Part shown: positions 7,716 to 61,662 of the stretch, piece after piece
Layout: every line of letters begins with the position of its first letter
Numbering within the stretch: position 1 is the stretch's first letter
Assembly (NCBI GenBank): GCA_022571985.1
Contig: JACZWU010000007.1
Location: 25,986-89,985 of the forward strand
Direction of reading: 5' to 3'
Length of the DNA: 64,000 bases
DNA from: Candidatus Zixiibacteriota bacterium
Lineage (GTDB): Bacteria > Zixibacteria > MSB-5A5 > GN15 > FEB-12
Translations under genes and position numbers: made by a program
The notes under the pieces: model-generated
Database searches by the model: none
Told to the model about the DNA's origin: nothing
What the model saw: only the letters and a program-made list of their open reading frames with translations

Positions 7716-7751
7716 TTTATGTGTATTAACTTCATGAAGGGTTAAATTATT

Positions 7752-8939: not shown

Positions 8940-8989
8940 TAGACAGCGAATGCCAATAGAATAGACGCGCTAACAGGGGGTAGGTTACG

Positions 8990-10174: not shown

Positions 10175-10212
10175 AATAATATTCGAACCACTGATCAGCA
10201 CAAATCCAATAT

Positions 10213-10408: not shown

Positions 10409-10479
10409 GCATTTCTAAATTTCCCCAGCCAAATCTTTCCATTCAGGATTAAATTCGACGAGGGTACTGCGCTACGCTA

Positions 10480-11841: not shown

Positions 11842-11886
11842 CTTATCTCCCCATTTGAAACAGACCGGTCAAGTCCTTTCAAATTT

Positions 11887-14514
11887 CTATTTGTTCGCCG
11901 CAAACTTTCTCAAATATTCAGCTACCGATTCACCCTCACGGGAACGCAAGTTGACGCAGTCGTTCACCTGGGCTTCAACTCTGGCCAATTGCTGGTGGGT
12001 TCCTTCCACAATTCTGTCTTCATCAGTGAAAAACTCTTTGCCCATGTTGAATTTATCTAAAGAGCAGCCTCCGGCAATAAAGACCATACGCGTGGCGAAG
12101 GCCTCTGGCAGCTTAGAGATTATTACATCATAGTTTTCAAGGAACCACTCGAAAATGAACTGATCATAATATTCTGACTGACCACTAACTGTAAATGGTA
12201 TCGAAAAAACTTCCTGTGGATATAATTCTCCGTTTAAGGTGTAGTCGAGCGCCTGATTAATGAGCGCCGTATCTCTGAATTGTCCCAGGGTCCTTAAGAA
12301 ACGGGAACGTACGGCCGGAATTTTGGCCGCCAGAAAGCGGCTCTTGAAATCTTCAAACAGAACGGAGTCACCATCTTTAGCGTAATTGCTAAGCGATACG
12401 CCAACCAGCGACGGGTCAATTGATGTCGGTTCTTCCAGGTATTTTTTTGCCAGGATTTTCAGATAGCTGCGGACTTCTTCGTTTTCACCTTCATCAGCCA
12501 GCCAGTTTATCAGACGGGGGCGCAGCAGCGCTTCTTCTTCATTTTCACCAATTTTAGCCTCCATGCCAAGGCGCTCAAGCGAAGGCATCAGCAGATGATT
12601 TACAAATACTGCGAAATCACTTTTTAGCTCATCGGGCGTAAAGGCCCCTTCGACTTTACCGATGCTCGAGATTAAGCTGCCTATAACAGCCGGGTCTTTG
12701 TCACCTGCGAACATGCTCAAAGCATCCAGAAAGTCACTGCCTTTTATTTCACCGGCATCAAGCAGCGCTGAGAGATTACTCAAAAGTCCGATTCGTTCGC
12801 TTCGGTTCAGATGTTCTCTGGCATTATCCATCAAGCTGACCAGCATCTCTTTTGACACTTGCCAGCGGTAGTAGCCGGTAGCGCTGGCATTTGGAAAAAT
12901 CCATTTTGGAGAGCTTTTTGAATCAAGCGTGACTACTTGTTCTTTCTCGGTTAAAAGAAATGACTTTTGCTTAATTGTTTTTCCATCAAGATATTTTAAT
13001 GTTATCGGTATCTGCCAGATTTGCTGGGCAACTTCAACTTCATAATTGGAAAACCGACTCTGGGTGACAGTTATTTGGTTATCATCACCGGTTGTGACAG
13101 TTAGAAGAGGAACTCCCGGCTGAACAATAAAAGTGCTCATAACTCCGGCTACATCCTGTCCTGAAGCCGCACTCAGGGAATTCCATAAATCAAACCCGGT
13201 AGCGTTTCCCCAGGCATTGTCATTTATATAATTTACGACGCCCTGACGAAATTTTTCTTCACCTACCCAGTTCTCAATCATCGATAGCACAGCCTGACCT
13301 TTGGAGTAGATTGTCCCGATATTTCTCAGCAAATCAGCGGTCTCACTTCCGGGAGGACGAATGGCAATTGCAGTGGGCCGGGCATCGCTTCTCATTACAC
13401 TCAGTCCTGAACGGACAGAGCCTATACCCAGCCCATAGTCAGGGTAAATTTTATGCGAAATTTTGCCGCCCAGCCAGGTGGCAAAAGACTCGTTTAGCCA
13501 TAAATCGTCCCACCATTCCATCGTCACCAGATCGCCAAACCACATATGGGCCAGCTCATGCGCGGTAACACTCGCCTGACGTCTTAACTGGCCGATAGTC
13601 GGAGTTTTATCAAACAGTAAGAGACTTTCCCGGTAGGTAATGGCGCCGGCATTTTCCATAGCGCCCGGCCAGAACTCCGGCACGGCTATCAAATCAAGTT
13701 TTTTGTAGGGGTAGGGTCTGCCAAAAAATGCGACAAGCTCTTTTAATATAGGTGGTGTAGATTTTATCGCCTGAGATGCCAGGTGGGTTTTGCCTTTGAC
13801 CGTAACGATGCGAGTTGGAATGGGCATATCAGGAACTTCGACAGTCTCCAACGGACCGGCGGCGATTGCCAGCAAATACGATGGCAGCGGCTTGGTTTTT
13901 TCAAATTCATAAATCTTCCAGCCGTCTGCTTGAGTCTCTCTTGCTACCGGTGTATTAGCGATTACTATGTGTTCCTCCGGAACAGACAAGGTCATTTGAT
14001 ATGGGAACTTAAAGGCAGGTTCGTCAAAACAGGGGAAAGCTTTGCGGGCATCGCTCTCTTCAAACTGTGTAAAAAGATAACTCTCGCCGTCCACTTCGGT
14101 TCTATAGAGGCCTACGGCCTGAGTGTTAAAAGAAGTGGTGAAATCTATCTCAAGTTTGTAGCTGCCTTTCTGCATTATCTGGCTGGTAGTAAGAGTAACA
14201 CGGCCGTTTTCGCCGGTGCTTAGAGTGTAGTCCAGTTCTTTTTCACCACTCGTAAGCAGTACTTTGTTAAGTTCTATATCTTCAGCATGAAAAATAAATT
14301 CGCTGGTTGCATTTAATACTTTGAGATCAATTGAGACCGAGCCCGAATAATCGGCTTCTCTGGCATCAATTTTTAAATCAATAGCCTGAAATGTGGGGAT
14401 GACCTCTTTTTTGAGCCGGATTGTATCGGCGGCAAATATCGGTGATAGATTAATTGCCAAAATCGCGAAAATTGCCCCCAAAAAAAGACCATAACGCTGT
14501 GTTGAAAAAATCAT
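11887..14514 (-). CDS. pepN: M1-family aminopeptidase N, secreted
   Basis: GAMEN exopeptidase motif and HELAHMWFGDLVTMEWWDDLWLNESFA (HEXXH-X18-E). ATG at 14514 is preceded by GGGAGA. Signal peptide MIFSTQRYGLFLGAIFAILAINLSPIFA. Confidence 0.9.
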   Translation of the reverse strand: MIFSTQRYGLFLGAIFAILAINLSPIFAADTIRLKKEVIPTFQAIDLKIDAREADYSGSVSIDLKVLNATSEFIFHAEDIELNKVLLTSGEKELDYTLSTGENGRVTLTTSQIMQKGSYKLEIDFTTSFNTQAVGLYRTEVDGESYLFTQFEESDARKAFPCFDEPAFKFPYQMTLSVPEEHIVIANTPVARETQADGWKIYEFEKTKPLPSYLLAIAAGPLETVEVPDMPIPTRIVTVKGKTHLASQAIKSTPPILKELVAFFGRPYPYKKLDLIAVPEFWPGAMENAGAITYRESLLLFDKTPTIGQLRRQASVTAHELAHMWFGDLVTMEWWDDLWLNESFATWLGGKISHKIYPDYGLGIGSVRSGLSVMRSDARPTAIAIRPPGSETADLLRNIGTIYSKGQAVLSMIENWVGEEKFRQGVVNYINDNAWGNATGFDLWNSLSAASGQDVAGVMSTFIVQPGVPLLTVTTGDDNQITVTQSRFSNYEVEVAQQIWQIPITLKYLDGKTIKQKSFLLTEKEQVVTLDSKSSPKWIFPNASATGYYRWQVSKEMLVSLMDNAREHLNRSERIGLLSNLSALLDAGEIKGSDFLDALSMFAGDKDPAVIGSLISSIGKVEGAFTPDELKSDFAVFVNHLLMPSLERLGMEAKIGENEEEALLRPRLINWLADEGENEEVRSYLKILAKKYLEEPTSIDPSLVGVSLSNYAKDGDSVLFEDFKSRFLAAKIPAVRSRFLRTLGQFRDTALINQALDYTLNGELYPQEVFSIPFTVSGQSEYYDQFIFEWFLENYDVIISKLPEAFATRMVFIAGGCSLDKFNMGKEFFTDEDRIVEGTHQQLARVEAQVNDCVNLRSREGESVAEYLRKFAANK

Positions 14515-16740: not shown

Positions 16741-19119
16741 TTATTGATTAAAGAATTGCTCTATCCTGTTGGTAAAGGCTGTGCCGGTTTCGCTTGCCGA
16801 GAAGCCAAGCAGGCCGCTTAAATCTGATAAAGTCTCATAAAAGTCAACTCTAACCATAATTTCGTTAAGCTCAGCTGCGGTCAGCTCGTTTTGAGCATCA
16901 AGGAGATTAATAATATTCAGTTTGCCTGCATCATAGCGCCCGATAACTGTTTCAAGGTTAAGCCGTGCCAGATCGAGCCGGCGGTAGACCGAGGGCAGCA
17001 TATCAAGGCCGGCAGTCATTTTTTGGAATTTGGAAAATATCTGGCCGCTTACTTTAAGCCGCTTATTGTCAGTTTCAAATTCAAGTCTGCTGTAAATTGA
17101 ATTCAGTTTTCGTCCTTCTTTGATTCTGTCCGTTCCCAGAAAAAGAGGTAATTTCAAAACGCCACCCAGCGTCCAGCTGCTTTTTTCTTCTGTGAACGAT
17201 AGCGGCGTATCTCTCAAGTCATCAGCATATCTGTAACTTGCCCGGAACTCAAGCGACGGCAAGTAACGTGACCTGTTTTGTGACCGAAGTCCGTTCATTA
17301 TGGCCAGCTTCTGCTCAAATTGCCGGATTTCGCTGTTATGGACCAGTGCATAATCTACCATCAGCTGCGCGATGCGCGAAGCCTGCTCAGGCAATGACAG
17401 CTTGCCATAAACGCGGTCATAAAATAACGAAGTTGCTGTTTCGGAAAACGATTCGGAGAAAACAATATATTCTGTTTCGTTCGGGTAGTTGAGCAGTGTA
17501 TTCAAAAGTATCCGGGCAATTTTGAGATTTGCTTTGGATTCAATAATCTTTTGACTGATTTTGTAACGTTCCTGCTGCCAGCGCGACATTTCGTATTCGT
17601 CGGCATTTTCTATGATCTGGCGCGTACCGGTGACTTCGATATTCCGGTCAACTAACTGTCTGATACGTGAAAAGATATCGACTAACTTTTCTGCTCTGAC
17701 ATAATTTAAATACGCCCGCTCTACCGCCCGCTCCAGTTCTATCCTGGCTTTTTCCAGATTAACCTGCTCCAGTTCTTTTTCTTTTGAGGCTACTTTGATA
17801 GAGCGAATTGTTTCCAGCGAAAAAAGTTTCTGATGCAAATCAAGGCTGGTTGCAAAGTATTCCTGCTCAAATTCATTGCGGGAGTTACTTACGGTATTGT
17901 CGTCGCGGTAGCCGAGCCCGGCGCTGAGACTAAGCTGCGGCAGGTAGGCGGCGTAGGCCTGAGCTGCCGCCTGTCCCGCTGCTTCAAGTGCGTCATACAT
18001 AGCCAGAAAGCCGGGGTTAAGCGAAACTGCCCGAAGTATGGCATCATCGATTGTCAGAGGCGGCGTATCTTCGGAAGCTCCGGCAAGTATCACATCGGCT
18101 TCATTATAGATTCTGCGCGACAGGGGAACCCGGCAGATTTTTGCCGTTTTTTCATTGACTGCCACCGAGTTGCCGCCTACGAATTCGAAAGTAAGTTCGG
18201 CTGGTTTGGAGCCGGTGATTATCTTAAAAGTTTTGTAAGCGTTAAAGCGGGCTTCGGAAAAAATATTGTAGGCAGAATTTGTAGCCAGCGCTCCGCGCTC
18301 TACCAGCGCCAGACCCTCGCTGACAATAGCCGGAATGCGGTCGTTTTTAAGCGATAAAAAGAATTGATTGACCATGGTAACATCCAGCCCCCAAAGTGGC
18401 GCCAGATATATGGCGTCAACAGATCTGTCTAACTTCTTATACGCTTTGAAATATGCAAAAGTGCCTTTATTATCGAAACCCTCGGCCGTGACAACTTCGA
18501 ATCCATACTTCTGCCCAATCGCTTCAACACGCGCGAGTACTGCTTTCGATTCATCTCCCGATGGAAAATGCAGGAAACCAAGTTTCTTAATCGGTCGAAA
18601 TAGGTTCAGAACGGACAGGTCATTTTCTATTTTGTCCGGGATAAGATGGATTGTCAGATTTTCTACTACAGGCTTACCTGAAGCATCCAGCAGACCTTCA
18701 ACGTCCGGTGCAAACTGATGCATGGCTACAATCGGTTTTTTGCAGCCGGCCTCAATCAAATCATTGACCACCCAGGGACCCACCGCAATGATAATATCAA
18801 TAGCAGCCAGTTCGCTGAGCTCTCTGGCCATCCGCCTGGAATTTTCCCTGTTCCATTCGGCGCTGCGGTAGCCATCAGGAGAAAAATGAACTATCAAATC
18901 TTCGGGCAGGACTGCCTTTAGTTGCTGCAGGTATTCATCTCTGAGCCGGTTGTGAATTATATACTGCCCGCCCTCGAAATAGCCCAGCCGGATTGGTCTG
19001 GCCGGTTCGGTCGCTTTTGCAGAGCCTGCCAATCCTGTCATTATAAGCAAGGCAGCTATCTGAACGGCTAATCGTCTTAATTGCACAAAGTTACAAAATA
19101 TATTCAGTCTGTTTTTCAT
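16741..19119 (-). CDS. Fusion protein: periplasmic-binding (COG2984/ABC_sub_bind-like) domain + TolC-family outer-membrane channel
   Basis: ATG at 19119 is preceded by GGGAG. Signal peptide ...LLIMTGLAGSAKA. N-terminal ~330 aa (RLGYFEGG...DIIIAVGPWV...KKLGFLHFP...GALATNS...ITGSKPAEL) fit the PBP pattern. C-terminal ~440 aa (LTIDDAILRAVSLNPGF..., two OEP repeats) fit TolC. Confidence 0.7.
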   Translation of the reverse strand: MKNRLNIFCNFVQLRRLAVQIAALLIMTGLAGSAKATEPARPIRLGYFEGGQYIIHNRLRDEYLQQLKAVLPEDLIVHFSPDGYRSAEWNRENSRRMARELSELAAIDIIIAVGPWVVNDLIEAGCKKPIVAMHQFAPDVEGLLDASGKPVVENLTIHLIPDKIENDLSVLNLFRPIKKLGFLHFPSGDESKAVLARVEAIGQKYGFEVVTAEGFDNKGTFAYFKAYKKLDRSVDAIYLAPLWGLDVTMVNQFFLSLKNDRIPAIVSEGLALVERGALATNSAYNIFSEARFNAYKTFKIITGSKPAELTFEFVGGNSVAVNEKTAKICRVPLSRRIYNEADVILAGASEDTPPLTIDDAILRAVSLNPGFLAMYDALEAAGQAAAQAYAAYLPQLSLSAGLGYRDDNTVSNSRNEFEQEYFATSLDLHQKLFSLETIRSIKVASKEKELEQVNLEKARIELERAVERAYLNYVRAEKLVDIFSRIRQLVDRNIEVTGTRQIIENADEYEMSRWQQERYKISQKIIESKANLKIARILLNTLLNYPNETEYIVFSESFSETATSLFYDRVYGKLSLPEQASRIAQLMVDYALVHNSEIRQFEQKLAIMNGLRSQNRSRYLPSLEFRASYRYADDLRDTPLSFTEEKSSWTLGGVLKLPLFLGTDRIKEGRKLNSIYSRLEFETDNKRLKVSGQIFSKFQKMTAGLDMLPSVYRRLDLARLNLETVIGRYDAGKLNIINLLDAQNELTAAELNEIMVRVDFYETLSDLSGLLGFSASETGTAFTNRIEQFFNQ

Positions 19120-19313
19120 AAGGCTCCCATAATAGCAAAATATGCCGGCCTGCCAAAGTCTTTTTTGACGGTCTGGCTTTTGCTTAAATCTTAAACGGTT
19201 AAGCAGAGCCGGCTGCCTAATTTTTATTACTGATAGCGAATCAGATTGACAGGCTTCAGATTTCTGTGTTAAGTACAAAAGATAATATTAAAGTGAGAAT
19301 TTTCAGATTACGT

Positions 19314-46524: not shown

Positions 46525-47907
46525 ATGGCAGCCAAAATTTTAGTAATTGACGACGAAGATTCTATGTGCGATTTCATGGAGATTATGCTCTCAAAAGAGG
46601 GCTATATCGTGGAAACTGTGAACTCTCCGCTGAGTGCTATCAGCCAGATTAAACAAAACGATTACGACCTGATTATCGCAGATCTCAATATGCCTGAGAT
46701 GGACGGACTGGAAGTACTTGAAGAAGTTAAGAAGTTCAAGAAAGACCAGGACCTGATTGTTATGACCGCCTATGCTTCGGTGGACACGGCTATAGAAGCC
46801 ATGAAAAGAGGCGCCGTCGATTATATTACAAAACCTTTCAAAGTTGATGAAATAAAACTGGCTATCGAAAAGTCTCTCAGCCGCAGGAAACTCCAGCAGG
46901 AAAACATCACCCTGAAACAGCAGCTGCACGAGGGAAATTCATTTGACAAATTTTTGGGGACATCGGCCGTAATAGTAAATTTAAAGCAACTGGCCAGCAG
47001 AATAGCCAACTCAGACTCGACTGTTCTTCTCAGAGGAGAGTCCGGCACCGGTAAAGAAGTCATAGCCCGGGCTATTCACCATCATTCCCCCCGCAGAAAC
47101 GGTCCCTTTGTTTCCATAAATTGTGCCGCTATTCCTGAAAACCTGTTAGAGTCGGAACTTTTCGGTTACAAAAAAGGAGCTTTTACCGGCGCTATTAAAG
47201 ACAAAGAAGGACTTTTTAGTACAGCCGAAGGAGGCACTTTTCTGCTTGACGAGGTTGGTAATACTTCGATGGCTTTTCAAGTAAAACTTCTGCGGGTTAT
47301 TGAAGAGAAAAAAATGACGCCTGTCGGCAGTACCAGGGAATTGGAACTTGATGTGCGCTTGATTGCTGCCACCAACGCCGACCTTGAAGAAGATGTCAGG
47401 CAGGGGCGGTTCCGGGCAGATCTGTTTTACCGCTTAAATGTAATACCCCTGCATATTCCACCCTTGAGAGAGCGCAAAGAAGATATCAAACTTCTGGTGG
47501 CACATTTCATTAACAAATTTTGCGCTAAGATTAATCTTGAGCCAAAAGAGATCTCTGAAAAGGCAATAGAGGCCCTTACCAGTTACAGCTGGCCCGGAAA
47601 TGTCAGAGAGCTGGAAAATACAATTGAGAGGGCGGTTCTACTTAGCAAAGGCAGTGAACTGCTGCCGGAAGATTTCCCGGAGAAACTTACAACAGTCGAA
47701 CCTCAGCCTATGGTCACCGCAGCGGATCCGGTCAATCCGACTTTGGAATCTATAGAGAAAGCCTATATCCATTATGTCATGAGCCAGTCCGGCGGCAAAA
47801 AGTCAAAGGCAGCCCGGATTCTGGGGATAGATACTTCGACTCTTTACCGCAAATTAGAGAGATATGATTTAAGTGATAGCGGGAAAACGAAGGCAGTAAA
47901 AAAATGA
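46525..47907 (+). CDS. Sigma-54-dependent response regulator (NtrC family, PilR-like)
   Basis: REC domain (DLIIADLNMPEMDG), AAA+ (GESGTGKE, GAFTGA loop, RADLFYRL), C-terminal Fis-type HTH (AARILGIDTSTLYRKL). Confidence 0.9.
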   Translation: MAAKILVIDDEDSMCDFMEIMLSKEGYIVETVNSPLSAISQIKQNDYDLIIADLNMPEMDGLEVLEEVKKFKKDQDLIVMTAYASVDTAIEAMKRGAVDYITKPFKVDEIKLAIEKSLSRRKLQQENITLKQQLHEGNSFDKFLGTSAVIVNLKQLASRIANSDSTVLLRGESGTGKEVIARAIHHHSPRRNGPFVSINCAAIPENLLESELFGYKKGAFTGAIKDKEGLFSTAEGGTFLLDEVGNTSMAFQVKLLRVIEEKKMTPVGSTRELELDVRLIAATNADLEEDVRQGRFRADLFYRLNVIPLHIPPLRERKEDIKLLVAHFINKFCAKINLEPKEISEKAIEALTSYSWPGNVRELENTIERAVLLSKGSELLPEDFPEKLTTVEPQPMVTAADPVNPTLESIEKAYIHYVMSQSGGKKSKAARILGIDTSTLYRKLERYDLSDSGKTKAVKK

Positions 47908-47947: not shown

Positions 47948-47964
47948 TGGGAACGATAATTGCA
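47948..47964 (+). promoter_or_regulatory. Putative sigma-54 promoter of pilin gene 1
   Basis: tgGGAACGataaTTGCA, GG-N10-GC. About 54 nt upstream of ATG 48017. Confidence 0.55.
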
Positions 47965-48016
47965 GCTAGAATAGAGTGCAGGAGTATGATAATTGCATTT
48001 GAAGGAGAAAGATAAG

Positions 48017-48442
48017 ATGAGACGTTCTGACCAGCGGGGTTTTACTTTAATTGAATTGATGATAGTCGTGGTGATTATCGGGATACTGGCTGCTCTGGCC
48101 ATACCAAGGTTTATGCAAAGTACGACTAAGACAAAGCAGGGTGAGGCGAAGCTCATTTTGAAACAAATCTACGTGAATCAACGCACCTTCAGGCAGGCGA
48201 CTCAGCTTAATACCTACTACATCCCGGGAGGACCGGCCTCTGCAGCTTCTCCTATGGCATTTAGTGAAATATGGATTGAGATTATGCCCAATGCCCGTTA
48301 CGTCTACACAATTGCAGCAACGACCAATACTTTTATTTGTACCGCTACTGCCAATATCGACGATGATGCCGCCATAGACACCTGGACGATAGACCAGACC
48401 GGCATTCTCCTTAATCCTATAAACGACGTAACCGCGTTATAA
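48017..48442 (+). CDS. pilA: Type IVa major pilin
   Basis: GAAGGAG RBS. MRRSDQRG|FTLIELMIVVVIIGILAALAIPRF prepilin leader with Phe+1/Glu+5. Confidence 0.85.
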   Translation: MRRSDQRGFTLIELMIVVVIIGILAALAIPRFMQSTTKTKQGEAKLILKQIYVNQRTFRQATQLNTYYIPGGPASAASPMAFSEIWIEIMPNARYVYTIAATTNTFICTATANIDDDAAIDTWTIDQTGILLNPINDVTAL

Positions 48443-48462
48443 AACTTAAGGTAATAGACGAA

Positions 48463-48492
48463 AGCCCGCAGGTTATCTGCGGGCTTTTTTTG
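48463..48492 (+). terminator. Rho-independent terminator
   Basis: agcccgcag-gttat-ctgcgggct followed by a T-run. Confidence 0.75.
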
Positions 48493-48692: not shown

Positions 48693-48708
48693 TGGCACAG
48701 CGTTTGCC
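48693..48708 (+). promoter_or_regulatory. Putative sigma-54 promoter of pilin gene 2
   Basis: TGGCACagcgtTTGCC is a near-perfect TGGCAC-N5-TTGC. About 70 nt upstream of ATG 48777. Confidence 0.65.
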
Positions 48709-48776: not shown

Positions 48777-49214
48777 ATGTTCACAAAGAATCACAATCGT
48801 CAGAAGGGTTTCACCCTTATTGAGTTGATGATCGTAGTCGTGATTATCGGTATTTTGGCTGCTCTGGCCATTCCGAGATTCATGCAGGCTACTACTCGTT
48901 CCAAGCAGTCAGAAGCCAAACAGCTTCTGAAACAGGTTTATACAATGCAACGCACCTTTCGTCAGAGCGTCGCAGTCTTACCAGCCAGATATGGTGATGC
49001 CGGTGTCAGCGTGGCTCCTGGTGGAGGTCTTTTCCCGGAGATTGGTGTAGAAGTCATGGTCACTGCCCTTTATCAATACGACATGACTATTGCTACAGAT
49101 ATCGCCTTTCTCTGTACAGCAACTGCTAACCTGGATGACGATGTTGCTGTCGACACCTGGACGATTGACCACAACGGTAACTTGCTGAATACGATCAACG
49201 ACGTCAATCTTTAA
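48777..49214 (+). CDS. pilA: Type IVa major pilin, second paralog
   Basis: MFTKNHNRQKG|FTLIELMIVVVIIGILAALAIPRF. The C-terminal CTATAN(I/L)DDD...DTWTID block is shared with paralog 1. Confidence 0.85.
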   Translation: MFTKNHNRQKGFTLIELMIVVVIIGILAALAIPRFMQATTRSKQSEAKQLLKQVYTMQRTFRQSVAVLPARYGDAGVSVAPGGGLFPEIGVEVMVTALYQYDMTIATDIAFLCTATANLDDDVAVDTWTIDHNGNLLNTINDVNL

Positions 49215-49276: not shown

Positions 49277-49321
49277 GAAAGCGTCCCTGCTTATGCAGGG
49301 ACGCTTTCTTATTACTTTTTT
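49277..49321 (+). terminator. Rho-independent terminator
   Basis: 14-bp stem gaaagcgtccctgc / gcagggacgctttc with loop ttat and a T-rich tail. Confidence 0.7.
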
Positions 49322-49388: not shown

Positions 49389-51329
49389 ATGTCGATGAAA
49401 TCTGTTTATTACATGTGTCTCATACTTTTGTTAGCCTTGGGTGCTTCAGCTCAGAATAAAAAGAAGATGTCACCGGAACAGCAGGGGCTGCTTCTATTGA
49501 CAAACTATTTAGGCCTCGAACTAGAGGATATCTCTTTTCGCCAGGACTACCACGACCCGGACGGTTTCCGCCTGAGCAAAGTTGCGGCGCTTATGAGTCG
49601 GCCTTTGGATATGATTGGCTATGTCGACGAGCTAAGAGGTGTTCATATCAAAGGCCAGCCGGAAATTCTGGCCTCCATACTCTTTGACGATCTGGCCGTA
49701 ACCGGCCAGAGCTCCCGTAGCAGGGCCTACCGGCCGCAGGGGACAGAGGCAGGAGATGCCTATACTCTGTATTTCTTAAATCAGGCCCTCAATCAGTTTC
49801 TGGCCCGGATGGCTGTCTATATCGACCAGGTATTTCCCCGTTCGACAGAAATGATGCTGGCACCTCTGTCTAAGAAGGAAAAAAGATTTCTGACAACCAA
49901 ATTCAAAGATATTATAACAAGCGACTTAGAAGAAGAATTTTACACAGTAGAACAACATGATTCACTGGAGAAAGCCGAAGAAAAATATGCCGACCAGTTT
50001 GTAGAATTTGCCGGTAAAATAGACAAAGACCCCATTATCAGAGCCGGCATAGACTGCCTGAAGATGATACTGCTTGAGACCAAGAGATTAAGAAAGCAGC
50101 TGCGAGAAGGAGAAGACGCCGCCGAAGATTTCATGAGGGTAACCGGGTTCCTTCCGGATAATACTGATCTCAGCGCCTTTCTGGGCAGGCAGCCGGGCTG
50201 GGCCATAGGCGGTCCGGATAACGACTATTACAACGGCGATTACTATTTCATATTGGATATCGGCGGGGACGACATCTATGACCTGGAATATGACCCGAAC
50301 AACCCCCACGGAGTAATCATAATTGATTTCAGCGGTAACGACAGCTATCGCTCCCGTAGCGATTTTACATTAGGTTCTGGCTGTCTGTCTGTCGGTATCT
50401 TAGTCGATTTTGAGGGAGACGACAGGTATGACGCTAAATCGTTTTCTCTGGGCTCAGGTTATTTTGGTTTTGGGATTTTATATGACGCCGGTGGTGACGA
50501 CCGTTATGACGGCGACACCCATGTCCAGGGGGCAGGCTCATTCGGACTGGGGCTTTTAATAGATGAAGGGGGACGGGACATTTACAATGGCGCTCTCTTT
50601 GCCCAGGGGTTCGGGTTTATCGAAGGCTGCGGTATTATTGTTGATACCAAAGGCTCAGACTCATATTACGCCGGAGGAAAATACAAAGATATCCTGCGCT
50701 ATGATGACCATTATTTGTCGCTGTCTCAAGGTTTCGGCTACGGACTTAGACCGATTATGTCCGGGGGAATCGGCGGCATAATCGACCTTGAAGGCAACGA
50801 CAGTTATTATTCTGATATATTTGGTCAGGGCTCCAGCTACTGGTGGTCGCTGGGATTTATTTCTGACAAGTCCGGTAATGACAACTATCACTCTTTTCAA
50901 TATGCTCAGGGAGCCGCCGCTCATATGTCGCTGGGGATTCTCGCAGACGACAGCGGCAACGATGTTTACTTTGCCAAAGGAGTCTCGCAGGGTTGCGGCC
51001 ACGATTATTCTGCAGGTATTTTGCTGGACAGAGCCGGAAATGATACTTATACCGCCTATGATTTATCCCAGGCGGCCGGTTCAGCCAACGGCGTCGGGAT
51101 TTTGATAGATAACTCAGGCGATGACCGTTATTTTATCCATAATCAAAAAAACAGTCAGGGTTACGGTAACCCCCGCAGAGATTTTGGCTCTATCGGTCTC
51201 TTCATTGACAACGGAGGCGCTGACCAATATCTGGGCAACGGCAGAGATGATTTTTTCTGGCAGACGAAATCAAAATGGGGCGGCGGTATGGATATTGAGC
51301 TTTTTCCTGCAGATGAGAATAAAAAATGA
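49389..51329 (+). CDS. Secreted protein with 12 D-x-x-G-x-D-x-Y repeats (predicted beta-solenoid), unknown function
   Basis: Signal peptide ...LLLALGASAQ. Helical N-terminal half. From 50256 to 51230 there are 12 repeats of about 27 aa (DIGGDDIY, DFSGNDSY, DFEGDDRY, DAGGDDRY, DEGGRDIY, DTKGSDSY, DLEGNDSY, DKSGNDNY, DDSGNDVY, DRAGNDTY, DNSGDDRY, DNGGADQY). Confidence 0.6.
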   Translation: MSMKSVYYMCLILLLALGASAQNKKKMSPEQQGLLLLTNYLGLELEDISFRQDYHDPDGFRLSKVAALMSRPLDMIGYVDELRGVHIKGQPEILASILFDDLAVTGQSSRSRAYRPQGTEAGDAYTLYFLNQALNQFLARMAVYIDQVFPRSTEMMLAPLSKKEKRFLTTKFKDIITSDLEEEFYTVEQHDSLEKAEEKYADQFVEFAGKIDKDPIIRAGIDCLKMILLETKRLRKQLREGEDAAEDFMRVTGFLPDNTDLSAFLGRQPGWAIGGPDNDYYNGDYYFILDIGGDDIYDLEYDPNNPHGVIIIDFSGNDSYRSRSDFTLGSGCLSVGILVDFEGDDRYDAKSFSLGSGYFGFGILYDAGGDDRYDGDTHVQGAGSFGLGLLIDEGGRDIYNGALFAQGFGFIEGCGIIVDTKGSDSYYAGGKYKDILRYDDHYLSLSQGFGYGLRPIMSGGIGGIIDLEGNDSYYSDIFGQGSSYWWSLGFISDKSGNDNYHSFQYAQGAAAHMSLGILADDSGNDVYFAKGVSQGCGHDYSAGILLDRAGNDTYTAYDLSQAAGSANGVGILIDNSGDDRYFIHNQKNSQGYGNPRRDFGSIGLFIDNGGADQYLGNGRDDFFWQTKSKWGGGMDIELFPADENKK

Positions 51330-52285
51330 AAATTAGAATTTTCATAGCTGCCATATCTCTTATCGCAGTACCAGTTTTTACTTTAGCGGCTGCAGAATCA
51401 AACAGAACCCCGGTGCAGCTTCAAAAAAGGATAGATTCAATATTTGTGATAGCGTCATCGGGTGAGCTTAAATATCGTGACAAGGTTGACCCGGCTATAG
51501 AGTCCCTGGCAAAACTTGGGGCCAAGGCAGCCCCGCCTTTGATTGATAAGTTCACGACTAAGTCTGCCAGAGAGCGCCTGACGATAATAAAGATTCTCAA
51601 GAAAATCGGCTCGCCGGCTCTGCCAGATTTGATTGATGCTCTGAGCCGGCCTGAGTGGCTGGTGGTAAAACGGGTCTGCTGGACACTGGGGGATATCAGC
51701 GATGTGGCTGCTGTCTCTTCACTAATTGGTGTAGTCGGTCATGACAACTGGCAGGTTAGAGAATACAGCATCAGGGCGCTGGGGAAAATAGGAGATTTGC
51801 AGGCTGTGGCAGCTGTTATAAATTCGTTTAAGGACCCGGTGGGACAGGTGAGGAAAGCGGCGGTAGTTTCTGCCGGCCAATTAAACTCGGCTGAAACAAT
51901 CTCATATCTGATTCAGATACTGGGAGATGCTTACTACGGCGCCAGATTGTCAGCGGTTGAAGCCTTGCTTACCAAGGACACGACCTTGTTGTTAGCACAG
52001 TTAAAAGAAACGCTTAAATCGGCCAGCGGCTTAAAAGCAAAACTGGCCATGAAAGTACTTGGACAAATCGGCAATGATGAAGCTATGGATATTCTTTCAG
52101 AGCAGCTAAATTCCGGCAACCGGCAAAAAGTAGTAGACGCTGCCATTGCGATTGTGTCAGCCGACCCCAAAAATATCTGCGGTTACCATGAAAGCATATT
52201 CGAAAAAGTCAAAGGCAGATTGGACCTTCTTAAAATCAAATCGGTCAGGGCATCAGCGGGCGATGGCACGCACTCGGCTAACTGA
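51326..52285 (+). CDS. Periplasmic HEAT-repeat (PBS-lyase type) protein
   Basis: ATGA overlap with the upstream gene. Signal peptide MKIRIFIAAISLIAVPVFTLAAA. Repeated ...VR..A..ALG.IGD..AV..L motifs. Confidence 0.7.
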   Translation: MKIRIFIAAISLIAVPVFTLAAAESNRTPVQLQKRIDSIFVIASSGELKYRDKVDPAIESLAKLGAKAAPPLIDKFTTKSARERLTIIKILKKIGSPALPDLIDALSRPEWLVVKRVCWTLGDISDVAAVSSLIGVVGHDNWQVREYSIRALGKIGDLQAVAAVINSFKDPVGQVRKAAVVSAGQLNSAETISYLIQILGDAYYGARLSAVEALLTKDTTLLLAQLKETLKSASGLKAKLAMKVLGQIGNDEAMDILSEQLNSGNRQKVVDAAIAIVSADPKNICGYHESIFEKVKGRLDLLKIKSVRASAGDGTHSAN

Positions 52286-53513
52286 TCAGCTCAAGCGACT
52301 AGAAGGGCATATGGGTGTCGGTTCACCGGCAATGCCTATGTCTATATCTATGTTAAAGTCTAAGCCAAAAATTCCGAGTCGTTATTTAGATTTCGCAGGA
52401 GCTCTCGGCGGCAAACTGATAACAAACAGCGCCGGAAATTACTGTCTTATTCGCACAGTTTTTCCGCTAGGCTATAGGCACGGCAGCTATGAGCTTACTG
52501 CCGCCGAAATAAATAGTTCGCTGCCACTGGCTGCTTTTGATGTCAGCTGCAACAGCGAGACAATCGACTTAAGCTCAGTTCTGTTTATTGACACCGAAAC
52601 AACCGGACTGGGCGGCGCCGGAGCAGTAGCTTTCTTAATAGGAGTAGGCAGGATAATTGACGAAGGTTTTGAACTGTTACAGTACATTATTCCCGACTAC
52701 TCAGACGAAACCGCCATGCTGGAAGATTTAAATAGTATTTTCAGTGACGAGCTGGCGGTCGTAACTTTTAATGGCAAATCGTTTGATTTACCGCTTCTGA
52801 CTGACAGATTGATAATCAATCGTGTCGGACGAAAACTCAGCTTCAAGCATCATCTGGACTTGCTTCATTCCTCGCGAAGGCTTTTTAAGCGACGGCTGCA
52901 AAGTTGTACTCTGATAAATCTCGAAAGAGAACTGTTTGATTTTAATCGCATAGACGACATTCCCGGTTACCTGGTGCCGTCGGTATTTTTCGACTGGCTC
53001 AATAGTGAAGATCTTTCCATGATGAATGCTGTAATCGAGCACAACCGGCTGGATATTGTTTCTCTTTTCTTTTTAGCCAGGCTAATATCCGAGGCGTATT
53101 CCACCACCGGCGGTAGTCTGGACTATTCAGAGGACCTGCACTCGCTCTCAAAATGGTATGACCGGCGCCGAGAGCGCGAAAAAATAGAAGTTGTTTATAG
53201 CCAGGCTGAAAGGTTATCAGAAAACATGAGCGCCGAAGCAGTCTTGTTTTATGCCCGAAGTTTTAAGCGACAAAAAAAATTTGATGAAAGCATAGAACTG
53301 CTTTCTAAAATAACGTCCGATGATTCCAAATATGGTTTTTCAGCAAATATAGAACTGGCTGTTCACTATGAACACCGTACCAAAGAATTGCTCAAAGCGC
53401 TGGAGCACGCTACGCAGGCCGGAAAAAACCGGGAGATTCCTGCCAGTCAGAAAGTGAACTTGAGCAAACGAGTTGAGCGTTTAAAACTAAAACTAAAACT
53501 TAAAAACAAGTAA
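52263..53513 (+). CDS. YprB-type RNase H-like (predicted 3'-5' exonuclease fold) protein with helical/TPR-like C-terminus
   Basis: ATG 52263 overlaps the HEAT gene by 23 nt. VLFIDTETTGLG, VVTFNGKSFDLPLL, HLDLL and EHNRLDIVSL match the COG3359 pattern. Confidence 0.7.
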   Translation: MARTRLTDQLKRLEGHMGVGSPAMPMSISMLKSKPKIPSRYLDFAGALGGKLITNSAGNYCLIRTVFPLGYRHGSYELTAAEINSSLPLAAFDVSCNSETIDLSSVLFIDTETTGLGGAGAVAFLIGVGRIIDEGFELLQYIIPDYSDETAMLEDLNSIFSDELAVVTFNGKSFDLPLLTDRLIINRVGRKLSFKHHLDLLHSSRRLFKRRLQSCTLINLERELFDFNRIDDIPGYLVPSVFFDWLNSEDLSMMNAVIEHNRLDIVSLFFLARLISEAYSTTGGSLDYSEDLHSLSKWYDRRREREKIEVVYSQAERLSENMSAEAVLFYARSFKRQKKFDESIELLSKITSDDSKYGFSANIELAVHYEHRTKELLKALEHATQAGKNREIPASQKVNLSKRVERLKLKLKLKNK

Positions 53514-53531: not shown

Positions 53532-55610
53532 TTAGTTCGACTCTTTTACGATAATAACGGATCGGTTGCCTTTTACAGCCAGTAGATTCGAAGCCTTCCC
53601 TAACTCAACTTGTGCGGTTTGCAGGCCGTGTTTATCAGAAATTGCGATGGCCTGAAAATCTGAAACATTTATGGTGCCGTTTTGTGTTTCCATCGTCAAC
53701 AGAAGATTGATGCGCGGTGACAGGCCGAGGATAATTCTGCCGCCGCTGGCAACTACGGACGATTTCCCCTTGAGCTGCTCCAGCAGTTCCATAAAGACGT
53801 CACCGTTGTTGCTTTTGATATTTATCGGCCCGACAATGTACGAAGTAAATATCTTGCCGTAGCTATTGCTGATATCCAGACTGCCGCCAATTTTTTCCAC
53901 TTCTATGACAGCATTGGCGTTTTCGAGTCTGGCTGAGCCGGTGACGTTATAAACCTTTAGAGGTTCGAACGAATTAAATATAACCAGATCGCCATCAATA
54001 TGGCTGGCGCTGACGTAACCGTTTCTATTATTGACATGAACTTTTCCGGAGTGGTGATCGATATCTACCCGGCCGCTGCTGCGGACAGTCAAATCACCCT
54101 CAGAGTAAGTTATTTCAACTGCGCCATGTGAGTTGTCTACTTCGATTTTGCCGCTGCAGTTCTGAATGCTGACCGGGCCGCCCATACGATTTTGAACTAA
54201 GATATCGCCCGATACTTTTTCAAGTTCTATTTTTCCGCCGCTGTTGACTATTTCTATATCACCTTCGATTTTATACAAATTTATAAAGCTGTTACTTGAT
54301 TTAATCTTTATATCATTCTCAAGCTCACTCAAGCTTACCCGGCCGGCTGAATTGTTAATATTCAAATCATTTTTAAAAGGAACCATCAGATTAAGATGGC
54401 TTTCAATAATCCTGGTCCGCAGGTCAGTAAGCTTCGGCACGACGGCCTCGATATACACGTTATGTTTTTCTTCAAACATTCTTATCTGAATCTGCCGGCC
54501 AAACTTTTCAGCCAGACCCGGTTTGACCGAAACAATTGAAATATCATAGCTGGCCGAGACCTGGTCTTTATCCCAGCCGGTTATGCTCAATTTGCCGAAC
54601 GGGTTAATTACCATTATTACAGATTTCCCGGAAGATATGCCTATGCTGTCGCGGAAAGTTTTTACAAAAGTATTTGAATTACCACTATGAAAAAAGTGTA
54701 TGTTCTGAACACGCTCACCAGCCGGCCATTTTGGTGGTCTGGGAGGTTCGGGTAATTCAGAGATTTCAGGTACAGAGACGACAACCGGAGCGAATCCATC
54801 AGAGGAAAGAATTACCCGGGTAATATCGCCATTGCTATTTGCCGTTACTTGTATTTCAGGAATATTTATTAGCGCTACTACTTCTGCCAGCCTGGCCAGG
54901 GAATCCTGCATAACTGTTACAACGTATTGCTGAATAACCCGGCGGCGAATTTTATCCCCTGCGGTTTTGGAGATTACTTCTATTACAAGCTGTTCTTTTA
55001 AAAGGTCGAGCTCTGTTATAAGTGATTTTGTCAGGCGGAGCGCTTTCAATCTCTCCTTGGTGCGTTTAATTTCACCGCTGTGTAATGCCTCTCTATTTCT
55101 GGCACGAGACAAACTTTTCTTTCTCAGGGACAGCTCCCCTTTCAATTCTTCAATCTCTACGATCAGCTCATCCAGATTATCATAGTAGCCTGACTTTGAG
55201 AGATTGCTGCAAAGATTTTGAAGAGACTTGAAGTTTTGAGCGGCATCCTTGTTGTCAAGTCTTTCAAAATATCGGCAGTAGTCAGTACTCAAATATATTA
55301 ACTGCTCCAGAAGATAAGCGTACTCTTCGGCCAGCTTGCGCGTCTCTTTGTCCATTTTCATCAGATTTCCGCGCCGGTCACTGTCGGCTTTGGGAGCATT
55401 CTGGCCATGCCCGGTGCCGGCAAGCAAGAGAAGGCTCAGAGTCAGAGCAATGGCCGTAATGAAAAGAGAAAGGCTACGATCCCGCCAGCTGATAACACCC
55501 GCCTTGGGTTTGCGGGTACCGTTGCCAGAACCATCCCAGGGGTTCTCACCAGCAGTAGAACTCTGCCAGAATTCAGATTGGTTCAAATTATGTCTGTTGT
55601 GATATCTCAT
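53532..55610 (-). CDS. Membrane-anchored coiled-coil protein with C-terminal DUF4097-like beta-helix repeats
   Basis: One TM (LSLFITAIALTLSLLLLAG), a heptad-rich segment, then many (G)xIxVxxxxGdl-type repeats (GKIELEKVSGDILVQN, GKIEVDNSHGAVEITYSEGDLTV, ...). Confidence 0.6.
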   Translation of the reverse strand: MRYHNRHNLNQSEFWQSSTAGENPWDGSGNGTRKPKAGVISWRDRSLSLFITAIALTLSLLLLAGTGHGQNAPKADSDRRGNLMKMDKETRKLAEEYAYLLEQLIYLSTDYCRYFERLDNKDAAQNFKSLQNLCSNLSKSGYYDNLDELIVEIEELKGELSLRKKSLSRARNREALHSGEIKRTKERLKALRLTKSLITELDLLKEQLVIEVISKTAGDKIRRRVIQQYVVTVMQDSLARLAEVVALINIPEIQVTANSNGDITRVILSSDGFAPVVVSVPEISELPEPPRPPKWPAGERVQNIHFFHSGNSNTFVKTFRDSIGISSGKSVIMVINPFGKLSITGWDKDQVSASYDISIVSVKPGLAEKFGRQIQIRMFEEKHNVYIEAVVPKLTDLRTRIIESHLNLMVPFKNDLNINNSAGRVSLSELENDIKIKSSNSFINLYKIEGDIEIVNSGGKIELEKVSGDILVQNRMGGPVSIQNCSGKIEVDNSHGAVEITYSEGDLTVRSSGRVDIDHHSGKVHVNNRNGYVSASHIDGDLVIFNSFEPLKVYNVTGSARLENANAVIEVEKIGGSLDISNSYGKIFTSYIVGPINIKSNNGDVFMELLEQLKGKSSVVASGGRIILGLSPRINLLLTMETQNGTINVSDFQAIAISDKHGLQTAQVELGKASNLLAVKGNRSVIIVKESN

Positions 55611-55809: not shown

Positions 55810-56823
55810 CTAAAAAATCAGCCCTAAGTTAATTCCGAATCGAAACTGGCTGGATTTCAGGTCATGAGGCAGGCCGCCAAACGAAGTACCTACTGGCCTT
55901 TCGTTCGGGCCGGCATCGGCATACTGCTCAAAAGTCTGGGTGGCATCAACTGAGAAGTAATCATAACTGGCCTGGAATTCTACAAAAGGCTGGCCGCCTG
56001 AAATTTGATTATTTAAGTCCCAGCGAATATTGCCACCGCTGAGAATTCCGGTGCCGGTGCCGTCGGCAAAAGTGTGAAATCCTCTGAGCAGGTGGTCATC
56101 AAAATCTTCGGCCCAGACCATAGTAAAAGCCGATTTTAAGCTGAGCTGAACTTTTGATGAGAATTCTTTTTGAAAAGAAAGACCGAACTTTGGTCCTTTA
56201 TAAGTTATCCAGTAATCAATAGCCGGCTCTGTTCCGGATTGTGGCTGCTGGGTTAGATTCGAATCTATATACCAGCCGCTGAAACCGATTATTTCCTGCT
56301 CTATTTTTTGATAGCGGTAGCCGCCCAAAATTGAAATGGAAGCTCCGCCAAAATCAAAAATAAGCGCCGTGCCTTCGATATCAAACATCAGCATTTTCAT
56401 CTTGGCGTCGGACTCGGTGTAGCTGATTTTTCCGTCAAAATATGTCGGTAAAGAAAGCCAGTCATGGTCTTTCATCAGACTGCCCGGGTCGCCAATATTG
56501 GTGTAGAGTCCAAGCTCCACTGTCCAGATTGTTTTCTCTTCGTTACTTTTTATTATGCCGATTCTGCCGCCGGCCATCGCGACATCCAGCGGGAATTCCA
56601 GAAGACTTCTGATGGCGTAATCAACGGTGTCGCCTGAAGGCAAAATTACCGGATAAGAAATATTATAATCATATTCTGTCTCGCCGGACATTTTCCAGAA
56701 AGAGGGTTTGACTGTGAAATTTATCTGAGTCGGTAAAGAAATTTCTTCGAATTCAACCTGATCCTGGGCCGACAGAGTTGCTGCAAGAAAAATAAGAATA
56801 GCGAAAACATAAACGAGTTTCAT
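55810..56823 (-). CDS. Omptin-like outer-membrane beta-barrel protease
   Basis: Signal peptide, alternating beta pattern, terminal F. MKDHDWL aligns with OmpT MVDQDWM (Asp83/Asp85). EDFDDHLL aligns with SDNDEHY (Asp210/His212). Confidence 0.5.
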   Translation of the reverse strand: MKLVYVFAILIFLAATLSAQDQVEFEEISLPTQINFTVKPSFWKMSGETEYDYNISYPVILPSGDTVDYAIRSLLEFPLDVAMAGGRIGIIKSNEEKTIWTVELGLYTNIGDPGSLMKDHDWLSLPTYFDGKISYTESDAKMKMLMFDIEGTALIFDFGGASISILGGYRYQKIEQEIIGFSGWYIDSNLTQQPQSGTEPAIDYWITYKGPKFGLSFQKEFSSKVQLSLKSAFTMVWAEDFDDHLLRGFHTFADGTGTGILSGGNIRWDLNNQISGGQPFVEFQASYDYFSVDATQTFEQYADAGPNERPVGTSFGGLPHDLKSSQFRFGINLGLIF

Positions 56824-60270: not shown

Positions 60271-61662
60271 ATGTACGAAAAGCAAAGAACCATAAAATCG
60301 CCCATCTCTATATCCGGCATAGGCCTACATACCGGAAACAACTGCACAATGACCTTCAGGCCGGGTGAAGTTAACAGCGGTATTATCTTTGAAAGAGCCG
60401 ACCTGCCCGAAAAGCCGAGAGTACTGGCCGATATTGACCATGTGGTTGATATCTCACGAGGTACCACTTTGCAGGATGGCGAGGCCAAAGTCCACACAGT
60501 CGAGCATGTTCTGGCCGCTTTTGCCGGCCTTCAGATAGACAATATGATTGTTGAACTGGATAACAATGAACCGCCGGTGATGGATGGTTCTGCTTTGCCG
60601 TACGTCGAGAAACTTCTCAAAGCCGGCATCGTGGAGCAGGCAGAAGATAAGTTCTATCTGGAAATTGATACGCCGATGTCATATAGCGAGCCGGAACGGG
60701 GAGTAGACTTAGTTGCCATACCAGCTGATGAGCTTCGCATTACTTTTTTAATCGATTACAAAAACCCGGCGCTGGGTACGCAGTACACGACCTTGGTAGA
60801 TCTGGAAAAAGAGTTTGTCAAAGAATATGCACCGGCACGGACATTTTGTTTTTTGTCAGAGCTTGAGATGCTTCGCAAGGAAGGCTTAATAAAAGGCGGT
60901 GGAATTGACAATGCGGTGGTGATTTATGATTCGACCGAGGGACAGGTCGAGGTTGACCGGATTAAGAAAGTGCTGAACATAAAAGGGGAAGCGTTTGTAG
61001 GCAAAACCGGCATAATAAACGATGTTCCTCTGCGGTTTTACAACGAACCGGTGCGTCATAAGACTCTGGATTTACTCGGTGATTTATTACTGATAGGAGC
61101 GCCTCTCAAAGGACATATTCTGGCGGCGCGCTCGGGACACAAAGCCAATGTTGCCCTGGCCAAAAAGCTCCGGGAACTTTACAAGAAAAAGAAAATAGCC
61201 AGCAAGTATTCCGGAAAAAATGCCGGAGCGTTTCTGGATATTAACGCTATCAAGAAAATCATGCCGCACCGCTATCCGTTTCTGCTTATAGACAGGATAA
61301 TTGATCTGGTGCCGGACAAAAAAGTTGTGGCCATGAAAAATGTGACAATCAATGAACCGTTTTTCCAGGGACATTTTCCCGGTCATCCGATTATGCCGGG
61401 GGTTTTGATACTTGAGGCGATGGCGCAGTCCGGCGGGATACTGATATTAAATGCCGTTGAAAACCCCGAGGGAAAACTTGTTTATTTTCTGGGAATAGAT
61501 AATGCCAGGTTTCGCAAACCGGTTCTGCCGGGCGACCAGTTAGTATTTGAACTGACTATGAAAACTTTCAGGCGCAACATTTGTAAAATGTCGGGCAAGG
61601 CTTTTGTTGACGGCGTCGAAGTTTGCGGCGCTGATTTTATGGCAATGGTAGTGGACAAATGA
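60271..61662 (+). CDS. lpxC/fabZ: Bifunctional UDP-3-O-acyl-GlcNAc deacetylase / 3-hydroxyacyl-ACP dehydratase
   Basis: N-terminal LpxC (SGIGLHTG, HTVEHVLAA, HKTLDLLGDL). C-terminal FabZ hot-dog (LPHRYPFLLIDRI, FFQGHFPGHPIMPGVL). Confidence 0.9.
   Translation: MYEKQRTIKSPISISGIGLHTGNNCTMTFRPGEVNSGIIFERADLPEKPRVLADIDHVVDISRGTTLQDGEAKVHTVEHVLAAFAGLQIDNMIVELDNNEPPVMDGSALPYVEKLLKAGIVEQAEDKFYLEIDTPMSYSEPERGVDLVAIPADELRITFLIDYKNPALGTQYTTLVDLEKEFVKEYAPARTFCFLSELEMLRKEGLIKGGGIDNAVVIYDSTEGQVEVDRIKKVLNIKGEAFVGKTGIINDVPLRFYNEPVRHKTLDLLGDLLLIGAPLKGHILAARSGHKANVALAKKLRELYKKKKIASKYSGKNAGAFLDINAIKKIMPHRYPFLLIDRIIDLVPDKKVVAMKNVTINEPFFQGHFPGHPIMPGVLILEAMAQSGGILILNAVENPEGKLVYFLGIDNARFRKPVLPGDQLVFELTMKTFRRNICKMSGKAFVDGVEVCGADFMAMVVDK

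Follow-up and report, generated by a model that had tools for sequence, protein, structure and literature searches.

Three overlapping genes at 49389–53513

Positions 49389–53513 of a 64,000-nt stretch of DNA from Candidatus Zixiibacteriota (contig JACZWU010000007.1; the whole stretch is referred to below as the window) hold three overlapping open reading frames (ORFs) on the + strand of the window's ORF list, here named g1, g2 and g3. An earlier note, made from the sequence alone, had described them as a coupled operon joining two exported proteins to a protein of nuclease fold. The three genes are as follows:

49389..51329, + strand: g1, ORF of 646 amino acids (aa); exported protein in which a signal peptide and a helical domain precede an acidic, predicted β-solenoid with a 26–27-residue repeat
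51326..52285, + strand: g2, ORF of 319 aa; exported HEAT-repeat protein with a signal peptide at aa 1–23 and a mature isoelectric point (pI) of 9.3
52263..53513, + strand: g3, 416 aa; putative cytoplasmic DEDDh 3'-5' exonuclease of the MrfB/YprB family

As read in the sequence, the TGA of g1 and the ATG of g2 share the tetranucleotide ATGA. The ORF of g3 opens upstream at a TTG (52146), and its ATG at 52263 gives a 23-nt overlap with g2. This ATG was taken as the start, since the homologues of loci L052, L058 and L001 align from that residue 1 and, in related contigs, the gene as called shares 14 nt with the HEAT gene. Coordinates and both overlaps agree with the earlier note. No terminator-like site was found between g1, g2 and g3. 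Sec-type hydrophobic N-termini are present on g1 and g2 and absent from g3; the description of g1 as an exoprotein goes beyond the evidence, which consists of a Sec signal peptide only. The nearest homologues of all three proteins come from metagenome-assembled genomes (MAGs) of Zixibacteria, with identities of up to 96% for g1 (locus L073).

The g1 family and its HEAT partner

Four parts of g1 need to be distinguished here:

49389..49451, + strand: Sec-type signal peptide (aa 1–21, ending in LALGASA before Q; read in the sequence)
49452..50186, + strand: N-terminal helical domain (aa 22–266) with the motif D-I-S-F-R-x-D-Y-x-x-P-D-x-F-R-L
50187..51296, + strand: predicted β-solenoid (aa 267–636) with 12 canonical coils plus degenerate capping coils; strand pattern in the model
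50679..50747, + strand: insert between coils 6 and 7 (aa 431–453, KYKDILRYDDHYLSLSQGFGYGL), highly conserved

The AlphaFold2 (AF2) model of g1 had a predicted local distance difference test (pLDDT) value of 84 and a predicted template modelling (pTM) score of 0.87. It places helices at residues 29–248; the helical domain proposed earlier is therefore present, but is shorter than the ~290 aa then given. Its residues D47, R51, D53, D58 and R61 are invariant, and the domain is kept in the homologues with peptidyl-prolyl isomerase (PPIase) or PDZ domains described below. Exact matches to D..G.D.[YF] number 12 and are located at aa 290–607 (50256–51230), which is the number and position previously reported; when the residues of g1 were shuffled, there were 0.15 matches on average and never more than 3. 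The matches are spaced by 23, 26 or 27 residues, with one spacing of 47, containing the conserved insert, and one of 33. The coils share the scaffold h-D-x-x-G-x-D-x-Y...(S/A)-Q-G-x-G...G-h-h, which is very strongly conserved and which, over 12 coils, would form two stacked Asp ladders; the solenoid region has a net charge of -32 and a pI of 4.2. On the basis of the model, the repeat is a predicted β-solenoid of 27-residue period. Residues 431–453, i.e. the insert, have pLDDT values <50 in the model, and within Zixibacteria Y432, D434, R437, H441, S444 and Q447 are invariant.

No Pfam or NCBIfam model matched g1 at E≤0.1, no recurrent Pfam family appeared among 36 aligned homologues at E≤10, and a profile of these 36 homologues gave 0 matches to all PDB sequences at E≤10. 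Foldseek comparison of the g1 model with the PDB returned noise only, with no solved β-helix or other structure matched. The FG-GAP models and the PADLOC models of anti-phage defence did not match g1, and right-handed parallel β-helix enzymes (pectate-lyase-like, PF13229/PbH1) gave neither a profile match nor structural similarity to solved β-helix proteins. Haemolysin-type RTX repeats (HemolysinCabind, PF00353) were not detected in g1 at E≤0.1, nor in the 36 homologues even at E≤10. Literature searches found no description of the family. The earlier statement that the repeat is neither RTX nor FG-GAP and could not be assigned to a named family is thus upheld by the lack of any Pfam or NCBIfam match, and the profile and structure checks proposed with it point to a new repeat family, modelled as a β-solenoid.

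RTX β-roll repeats follow the pattern GGxGxDxUx, and repeats of 19 residues are found in the Marinomonas ice-binding adhesin; these proteins bind Ca2+. Like the Ca2+-binding β-solenoids of the RTX type (as these are generally known), g1 is exported, very acidic and rich in Gly and Asp, and has a G-(N/D)-D-x-(aromatic/hydrophobic) turn in each coil. It differs from them in having a period of 26–27 residues instead of 9, 18 or 19, a single G-x-D-x-Y turn per coil, and a Sec signal peptide instead of the C-terminal signal of a type I secretion system (T1SS), as well as in the lack of matches to PF00353 and, by Foldseek, to solved structures.

A word-indexed search yielded more than 2,300 g1 homologues, the top matches being 60–70% identical across Zixibacteria and all labelled 'hypothetical'. 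In a profile search of 1.84 billion representatives, 3,902 g1 clusters at 50% identity were obtained, 1,949 of them below 1e-30; existing annotation of the family goes no further than 'hypothetical' or 'HEAT repeat protein'. The 80 best g1 loci were kept, with one genome scanned per species. They belong to MAGs labelled Zixibacteria, Eisenbacteria, Ignavibacteria, WOR-3, TA06, Latescibacterota, Gemmatimonadota, Cloacimonadota, Stahlbacteria, Fermentibacteria and Armatimonadota, and cluster members extend the family to Bacteroidota, Planctomycetota and Kiritimatiellia. The N-termini of g1 homologues are all hydrophobic and contain no twin-arginine motif. Export by the Tat pathway, an idea arising from a TatC gene upstream of g1 in one lineage, was rejected, as the N-termini inspected were all of the Sec type, with no S/T-R-R-x-F-L-K motif. 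In this lineage, labelled Ignavibacteria or Zixibacteria (loci L005, L007, L008, L013, L017, L032, L039, L047, L049, L050 and L061), TatC lies directly upstream of the g1 homologue and is itself preceded by NrdR-like and dCMP-deaminase-like genes, and an MPG-type DNA glycosylase-like gene is found downstream of the g1 homologue.

The g2 protein matches HEAT_2 (PF13646) at 2.7e-26 (92.1 bits, against a cut-off of 27.7) in 3 stretches, as well as HEAT_PBS; the NCBIfam lyase scores are all far under their cut-offs, and PADLOC gave generic HEAT matches only. A HEAT protein is fused or adjacent to g1 in about 72 of the 80 loci, representing more than 10 phyla: 19–20 loci encode a single-chain fusion (~930–1000 aa, without the g2 signal peptide), 12 have g1 and the HEAT gene overlapping in ATGA, and in most others HEAT is the next gene. 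The claim that g1 is tightly coupled to a HEAT protein with a signal peptide is borne out by these data. Loci L039 and L050 have an ORF of ~113–146 aa (cluster c66) in the position of the HEAT gene, and the contig of L061 ends just past g1.

Seventy of the 150 best representatives of the g1 family are 850–1050 aa long, with a C-terminal HEAT_2 domain detected by Pfam in those sampled. In BLAST alignments of the fused proteins, g1 and then g2 align collinearly, and the g2 alignment starts at residue ~24–37, past the signal peptide; the split g2 homologues nearly always have a signal peptide of their own. Both states are found within Gemmatimonadota and also within the Zixibacteria clade (L056 is fused), so that fission or fusion must have occurred repeatedly. 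Judged by these alignments, g2 is the detached C-terminal module of a g1 family protein, and it is very likely that g1 and g2 are split halves of one widespread exported protein and form one unit. According to the model of the fused homologue P0175 (925 aa; pLDDT 90.3, pTM 0.90), helical domain, solenoid and HEAT repeats are held in one rigid arrangement. The charges of the two halves are also complementary (net -32 for the g1 solenoid, pI 9.3 for mature g2). Another fused protein, P0224 (1265 aa), has a RibD deaminase/reductase N-terminus joined to solenoid and HEAT, and may be an artefact of gene calling or assembly.

Foldseek comparison of the fused model matched only the HEAT part, modelled as paired helices, to αRep, the PP2A A subunit and CpcE/F. 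In its HEAT_2/HEAT_PBS repeats g2 resembles the PBS-lyase type proteins CpcE/F and NblB and the αRep designs; unlike these bacterial HEAT-like proteins, it is exported and always belongs to a β-solenoid, either as obligate partner or as a domain fused to it. When all ORFs of 83 loci were clustered in search of a conserved third partner, only HEAT was common across lineages; the other neighbours of g1 are housekeeping or metabolic genes that change from lineage to lineage, and three further variants lie in unrelated contexts. Identities to L001 are 62% for g1, 41% for g2 and 44% for g3, and g1 evolves more slowly than g2 or g3. With g1/g2, a new repeat and domain family joins the known class of exported proteins that combine a β-solenoid with an α-solenoid.

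A conserved polar stripe on the solenoid and its possible clients

Besides the scaffold positions, a set of polar residues is conserved on the later coils of g1:

50826..51179, + strand: conserved polar stripe on coils 7–11, candidate functional site (aa 480–597: Q480, Y484, W485 / Y505, Q507, H512 / C536, H538, D539 / Q561 / R597)

The stripe residues occur at or near the same repeat register after Q-G, with R596/R597 one or two positions later owing to an insertion in coil 11. Y484, Y505, H512 and D539 are invariant in each of the five sampled types of architecture, among them HEAT-fused, PPIase, PDZ, β-helix and unfused variants; Q447, R454 and Q480 do not vary in four of the types and occur in most members of the mixed 'other' group. 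Most of the variants sampled also have H538 and R597. The conserved insert, with Q447 and the adjacent R454, neighbours the stripe. Polar invariance across the family and outside the scaffold is what would be expected of a site for specific binding or catalysis, more than of a passive surface.

This pattern bears on the view that g1/g2 is a non-catalytic, Ca2+-rigidified strut or spacer of the periplasm with a HEAT adaptor. An elongated solenoid with Asp ladders, a very strongly conserved repeat scaffold and no detectable enzyme family would suit such a role; the family-wide invariant His, Asp, Tyr and Arg lie outside the scaffold positions and are more typical of a ligand-binding or catalytic site, and we consider a purely structural role improbable. 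Given the net charge of the solenoid, bound divalent cations would be the most economical means of neutralising the Asp ladders, and the solenoid may, with about even chances, be stabilised by them.

A site of this kind could act on glycans. H-D/Y motifs are catalytic in mannuronan C5-epimerases, and g1 might be a β-helix enzyme (lyase, epimerase or hydrolase) acting on periplasmic or cell-surface glycans, with the HEAT subunit as an α-solenoid scaffold, as the TPR-like AlgK is for the β-helix epimerase AlgG in alginate export. The invariant Tyr/His/Asp/Arg stripe spans several coils, two homologues carry an extra N-terminal right-handed β-helix domain (PF13229), and an acidic, Asp-rich solenoid fits Ca2+-dependent chemistry. 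The AlgG/AlgK pair, as generally known, resembles g1/g2 in that a periplasmic β-helix with a polar stripe is paired with an all-α repeat protein, but neither sequence nor Foldseek similarity links the two pairs, and g1/g2 has no exopolysaccharide gene context. In addition, g1 matches none of the β-helix families of carbohydrate-active enzyme (CAZyme) type in Pfam and no solved β-helix by Foldseek, no polysaccharide-synthesis genes recur beside g1 in any lineage, and partners such as PDZ and parvulin usually go with proteins as clients, not with glycans. A glycan enzyme is thus unlikely in our analysis, though less so than a strut.

The domains that accompany the solenoid suggest a different client. 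In Planctomycetota-type homologues a parvulin PPIase takes the place of the C-terminal HEAT repeats, some homologues add an N-terminal PDZ domain, and one adds a C45/AAT peptidase-like domain together with PDZ. All three modules, HEAT, parvulin and PDZ, bind polypeptides and are characteristic of protein quality control in the periplasm. Because HEAT is swapped for a parvulin PPIase and PDZ is added in some homologues, the client is most likely a polypeptide among the possibilities considered; this assignment is tentative, and is favoured over a glycan substrate or a purely structural role. In combining parvulin, PDZ or helical-repeat modules, and in that its members all have signal peptides, the g1 family resembles SurA, PpiD, PrsA, DegP and Prc as generally known. 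These proteins have no counterpart of the constant core of g1, and no match of g1 to a protease or chaperone family was found. On a Planctomycetota-type contig (L084), a type II CRISPR-Cas system (Cas9, Cas1 and Cas2; 7681–12327) lies immediately downstream of a PPIase-fused solenoid homologue, probably by coincidence.

The core of g1, i.e. the helical domain, the 27-residue Asp-ladder solenoid and the invariant R/Y/Y/H/D site, might even found a new class of periplasmic enzyme or chaperone without a described relative, widespread in bacteria of the FCB and PVC groups and working as an obligate complex in which a HEAT, PPIase or PDZ module recruits the client. We put this forward with some reserve, if a little less than for the polypeptide client.

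The putative g3 exonuclease, the pilin genes and the rest of the window

The g3 protein matches RNase_H_2 (PF13482) at 1.1e-33 (116.9 bits, against a cut-off of 22) and, by phmmer, PDB entry 8un9_A ('Exonuclease MrfB', B. subtilis) at 1.2e-37 over residues 58–271. Two regions could be delimited:

52434..53081, + strand: exonuclease core (aa 58–273), aligned to the catalytic core of MrfB; motifs DTETTG, NGKSFD and H-x3-D
53115..53510, + strand: basic C-terminal tail (aa 285–416, 132 aa; pI 9.5), occupying the place of the MrfB TPR domain

MrfB (YprB) is a Mg/Mn-dependent 3'-5' DNA exonuclease with a C-terminal TPR domain, which works together with MrfA, a helicase, in mitomycin C repair and for which Asp172 and His258 have been named as catalytic residues (PMC11194089). 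The acidic DEDD-like residues that had been suggested as a check on g3 are all there: the DEDDh set D110, E112, D175, H260 and D264 aligns to the MrfB motifs and is invariant in 18 homologues. The assignment of g3 to the YprB-type RNase H-like proteins is therefore sound, but the family is no longer uncharacterised, since MrfB has been described (PMC11194089). The g3 protein aligns with MrfB (PDB 8UN9; PMC11194089) over the entire catalytic core, keeps all five DEDDh residues and is of nearly equal length (416 versus 413 aa); a basic C-terminal tail of fitting length stands at the place of the TPR domain of MrfB. It differs from MrfB in that it overlaps a periplasmic HEAT gene and that its tail has no Pfam TPR match at E≤0.1; the solved MrfB construct does not include this region. 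No gene for MrfA (YprA, DUF1998) was found among the window's ORFs of >700 aa or among annotated neighbours in the related loci L001–L003. In PADLOC, g3 gave a DEDDh match with an E value of 0.0055, under significance.

The earlier note had suggested that g1, g2 and g3 may mark one undescribed envelope-associated system, in which the nuclease-fold protein would work with the two exported proteins. The order g1-g2-g3 with overlapping junctions is found in at least 12 loci of the Zixibacteria clade, down to ~42% g1 identity, and the three genes have no terminator-like site between them, so the three-gene neighbourhood is conserved in this clade. The conservation stops there. In only 14–15 of the 80 loci does g3 follow g2, all within one synteny group that also contains the σ54 regulator, the pilins and an HDOD gene, and these neighbours, which co-vary with g3, indicate general clade synteny. 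Outside the clade g3 was never found beside g1/g2, whether in Eisenbacteria, WOR-3, TA06, Latescibacterota, Gemmatimonadota, Cloacimonadota, Ignavibacteria-labelled MAGs or Planctomycetota; the homologue search for g3 itself returned Zixibacteria-type orthologues only, so that its contexts in other phyla lay outside the view of that search. In L025 and L067 the synteny of pilins, g1, g2 and HDOD gene is kept and g3 is gone, with no remnant detectable. No fusion of g3 to g1 or g2 was found among the 150 representatives, about half of which are fused to HEAT. Finally, g3 has no signal peptide, and its match to the cytoplasmic repair exonuclease MrfB is of orthologue grade. The idea of a three-gene envelope system is not supported by these data: g3 is probably an MrfB-type enzyme without an obligate link to g1/g2, and a genuine functional link is quite improbable. 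What the g2-g3 overlap shows is stable co-expression in the Zixibacteria clade.

The upstream boundary of the operon is marked by the following features:

49277..49308, + strand: intrinsic terminator after pilin gene 2 (14-bp stem with 9 GC pairs, T-rich tail); upstream edge of the g1-g2-g3 transcription unit
48460..48488: intrinsic terminator after pilin gene 1 (13-bp stem)

A PilR-like σ54 response regulator is encoded at 46525–47907, followed by tandem type IV pilin genes at 47993–48442 and 48777–49214. The sole perfect σ54 -24/-12 match of the window (TGGCAC-N5-TTGC) is at 48693–48707, ~70 nt upstream of pilin 2, and a weaker GG/GC match of σ54 type is at 47949–47963, upstream of pilin 1. 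This arrangement in the Zixibacteria clade, with g1 directly downstream of regulator and pilins and the perfect σ54 site before pilin 2, could suggest that g1/g2 serves the type IV pilus or type II secretion-like pilin system next to it as an accessory or substrate, for instance as an adhesin that is secreted, or in DNA uptake with g3 as a further component. We regard this as the least probable of the readings considered. A strong terminator stands behind each pilin gene, the family never adjoins pilins outside the Zixibacteria clade, no secretion-specific C-terminal domain was detected by Pfam, and g3 is predicted to be cytoplasmic. The terminators and the σ54 site indicate that the pilins are separate σ54-driven units and that g1-g2-g3 is a transcription unit of its own. 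An operon link to the pilins was rejected on account of the terminators and the clade restriction; the position directly downstream of the pilin genes was reported correctly, but the 14-bp-stem terminator separates the two, the arrangement is clade-specific, and the link is one of position only.

In our opinion the best overall explanation, with a probability of about 0.5, is that two unrelated functional units are expressed from one operon in Zixibacteria. The first unit, g1 with g2, would be the split form of an ancient exported protein composed of signal peptide, helical domain, acidic 27-residue β-solenoid and HEAT repeats. Each half would be exported via its own Sec signal peptide, and the two may reassemble in the periplasm as one rigid complex, with the basic HEAT subunit on the very acidic solenoid. 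The D-x-x-G-x-D Asp ladders would most likely be neutralised by divalent cations, e.g. Ca2+, and the solenoid would be made rigid by them. The working site would most likely comprise the stripe of coils 7–11 (Y484, Y505, H512, H538/D539 and R597) and the conserved loop (Q447 and R454). The HEAT, PPIase or PDZ domain would recruit a polypeptide client on which the solenoid site may act, and g1/g2 would serve in the periplasm in the maturation, processing or quality control of proteins. Our best guess for g1/g2 is hence a cation-stabilised periplasmic factor acting on polypeptides. The second unit would be g3, a cytoplasmic MrfB-type DEDDh 3'-5' DNA exonuclease for DNA repair, and the g2-g3 overlap would reflect clade-specific operon packing, not a shared pathway. 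The data show the domain architecture, the linkage and fusion of g1 with g2, the pattern of conservation and what g3 is; the complex, the bound cations, the polypeptide client and catalysis are inferred.

Several observations weigh against parts of this explanation: i) a minority of loci (e.g. L040, L041, L050, L072 and L078) have no HEAT gene adjoining g1, ii) the case for cation binding consists solely of the Asp/Gly motif and the net charge, and the RTX model of Pfam does not match, iii) glycan lyases and epimerases, too, typically have invariant His, Asp, Tyr and Arg residues on a β-helix, so the client could be a polysaccharide, and iv) 12 loci, with g1 identities down to 42%, preserve a g2-g3 overlap of 8–29 nt, so selection for co-expression is possible.

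Among the other genes of the window, a 692-aa protein with a long N-terminal region and a C-terminal DUF4097 'toastrack'/LiaG-like domain is encoded at 53532–55610 (- strand), convergent with g3 and with its stop codon 18 nt from that of g3; members of the Zixibacteria synteny group have it at this place too (cluster c7). Next to it, the 337-aa protein encoded at 55810–56823 (- strand) has a signal peptide and a weak match to the omptin family (E 4e-6, just above the Pfam cut-off), and may be an outer-membrane β-barrel. The ORF at 16741–19278 (- strand, 845 aa) is an unusual fusion of an ABC-transporter substrate-binding domain (PF04392) with a TolC-like OEP domain (PF02321), the one at 60271–61662 (+ strand, 463 aa) joins LpxC to a FabA/FabZ-like dehydratase domain (LpxC-FabZ fusion), and the one at 119–2920 (- strand, 933 aa) has no Pfam family at E≤1e-5.

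On their own, g2 and g3 are ordinary. The 'nuclease-coupled envelope system' is corrected by these results to a nuclease that is an MrfB-type repair enzyme and a clade-specific operon neighbour only. The g1 family, in contrast, is large (~3,900 clusters at 50% identity) and highly conserved, with no Pfam or NCBIfam model and no solved relative, and the fusion evidence defines its true unit as solenoid plus HEAT. For g1/g2 the sequences indicate a location in the periplasm and, tentatively, polypeptide clients. A structural model of high confidence and a handful of invariant residues to mutate make this envelope factor, whose phyla are mostly uncultured, accessible to experiment.

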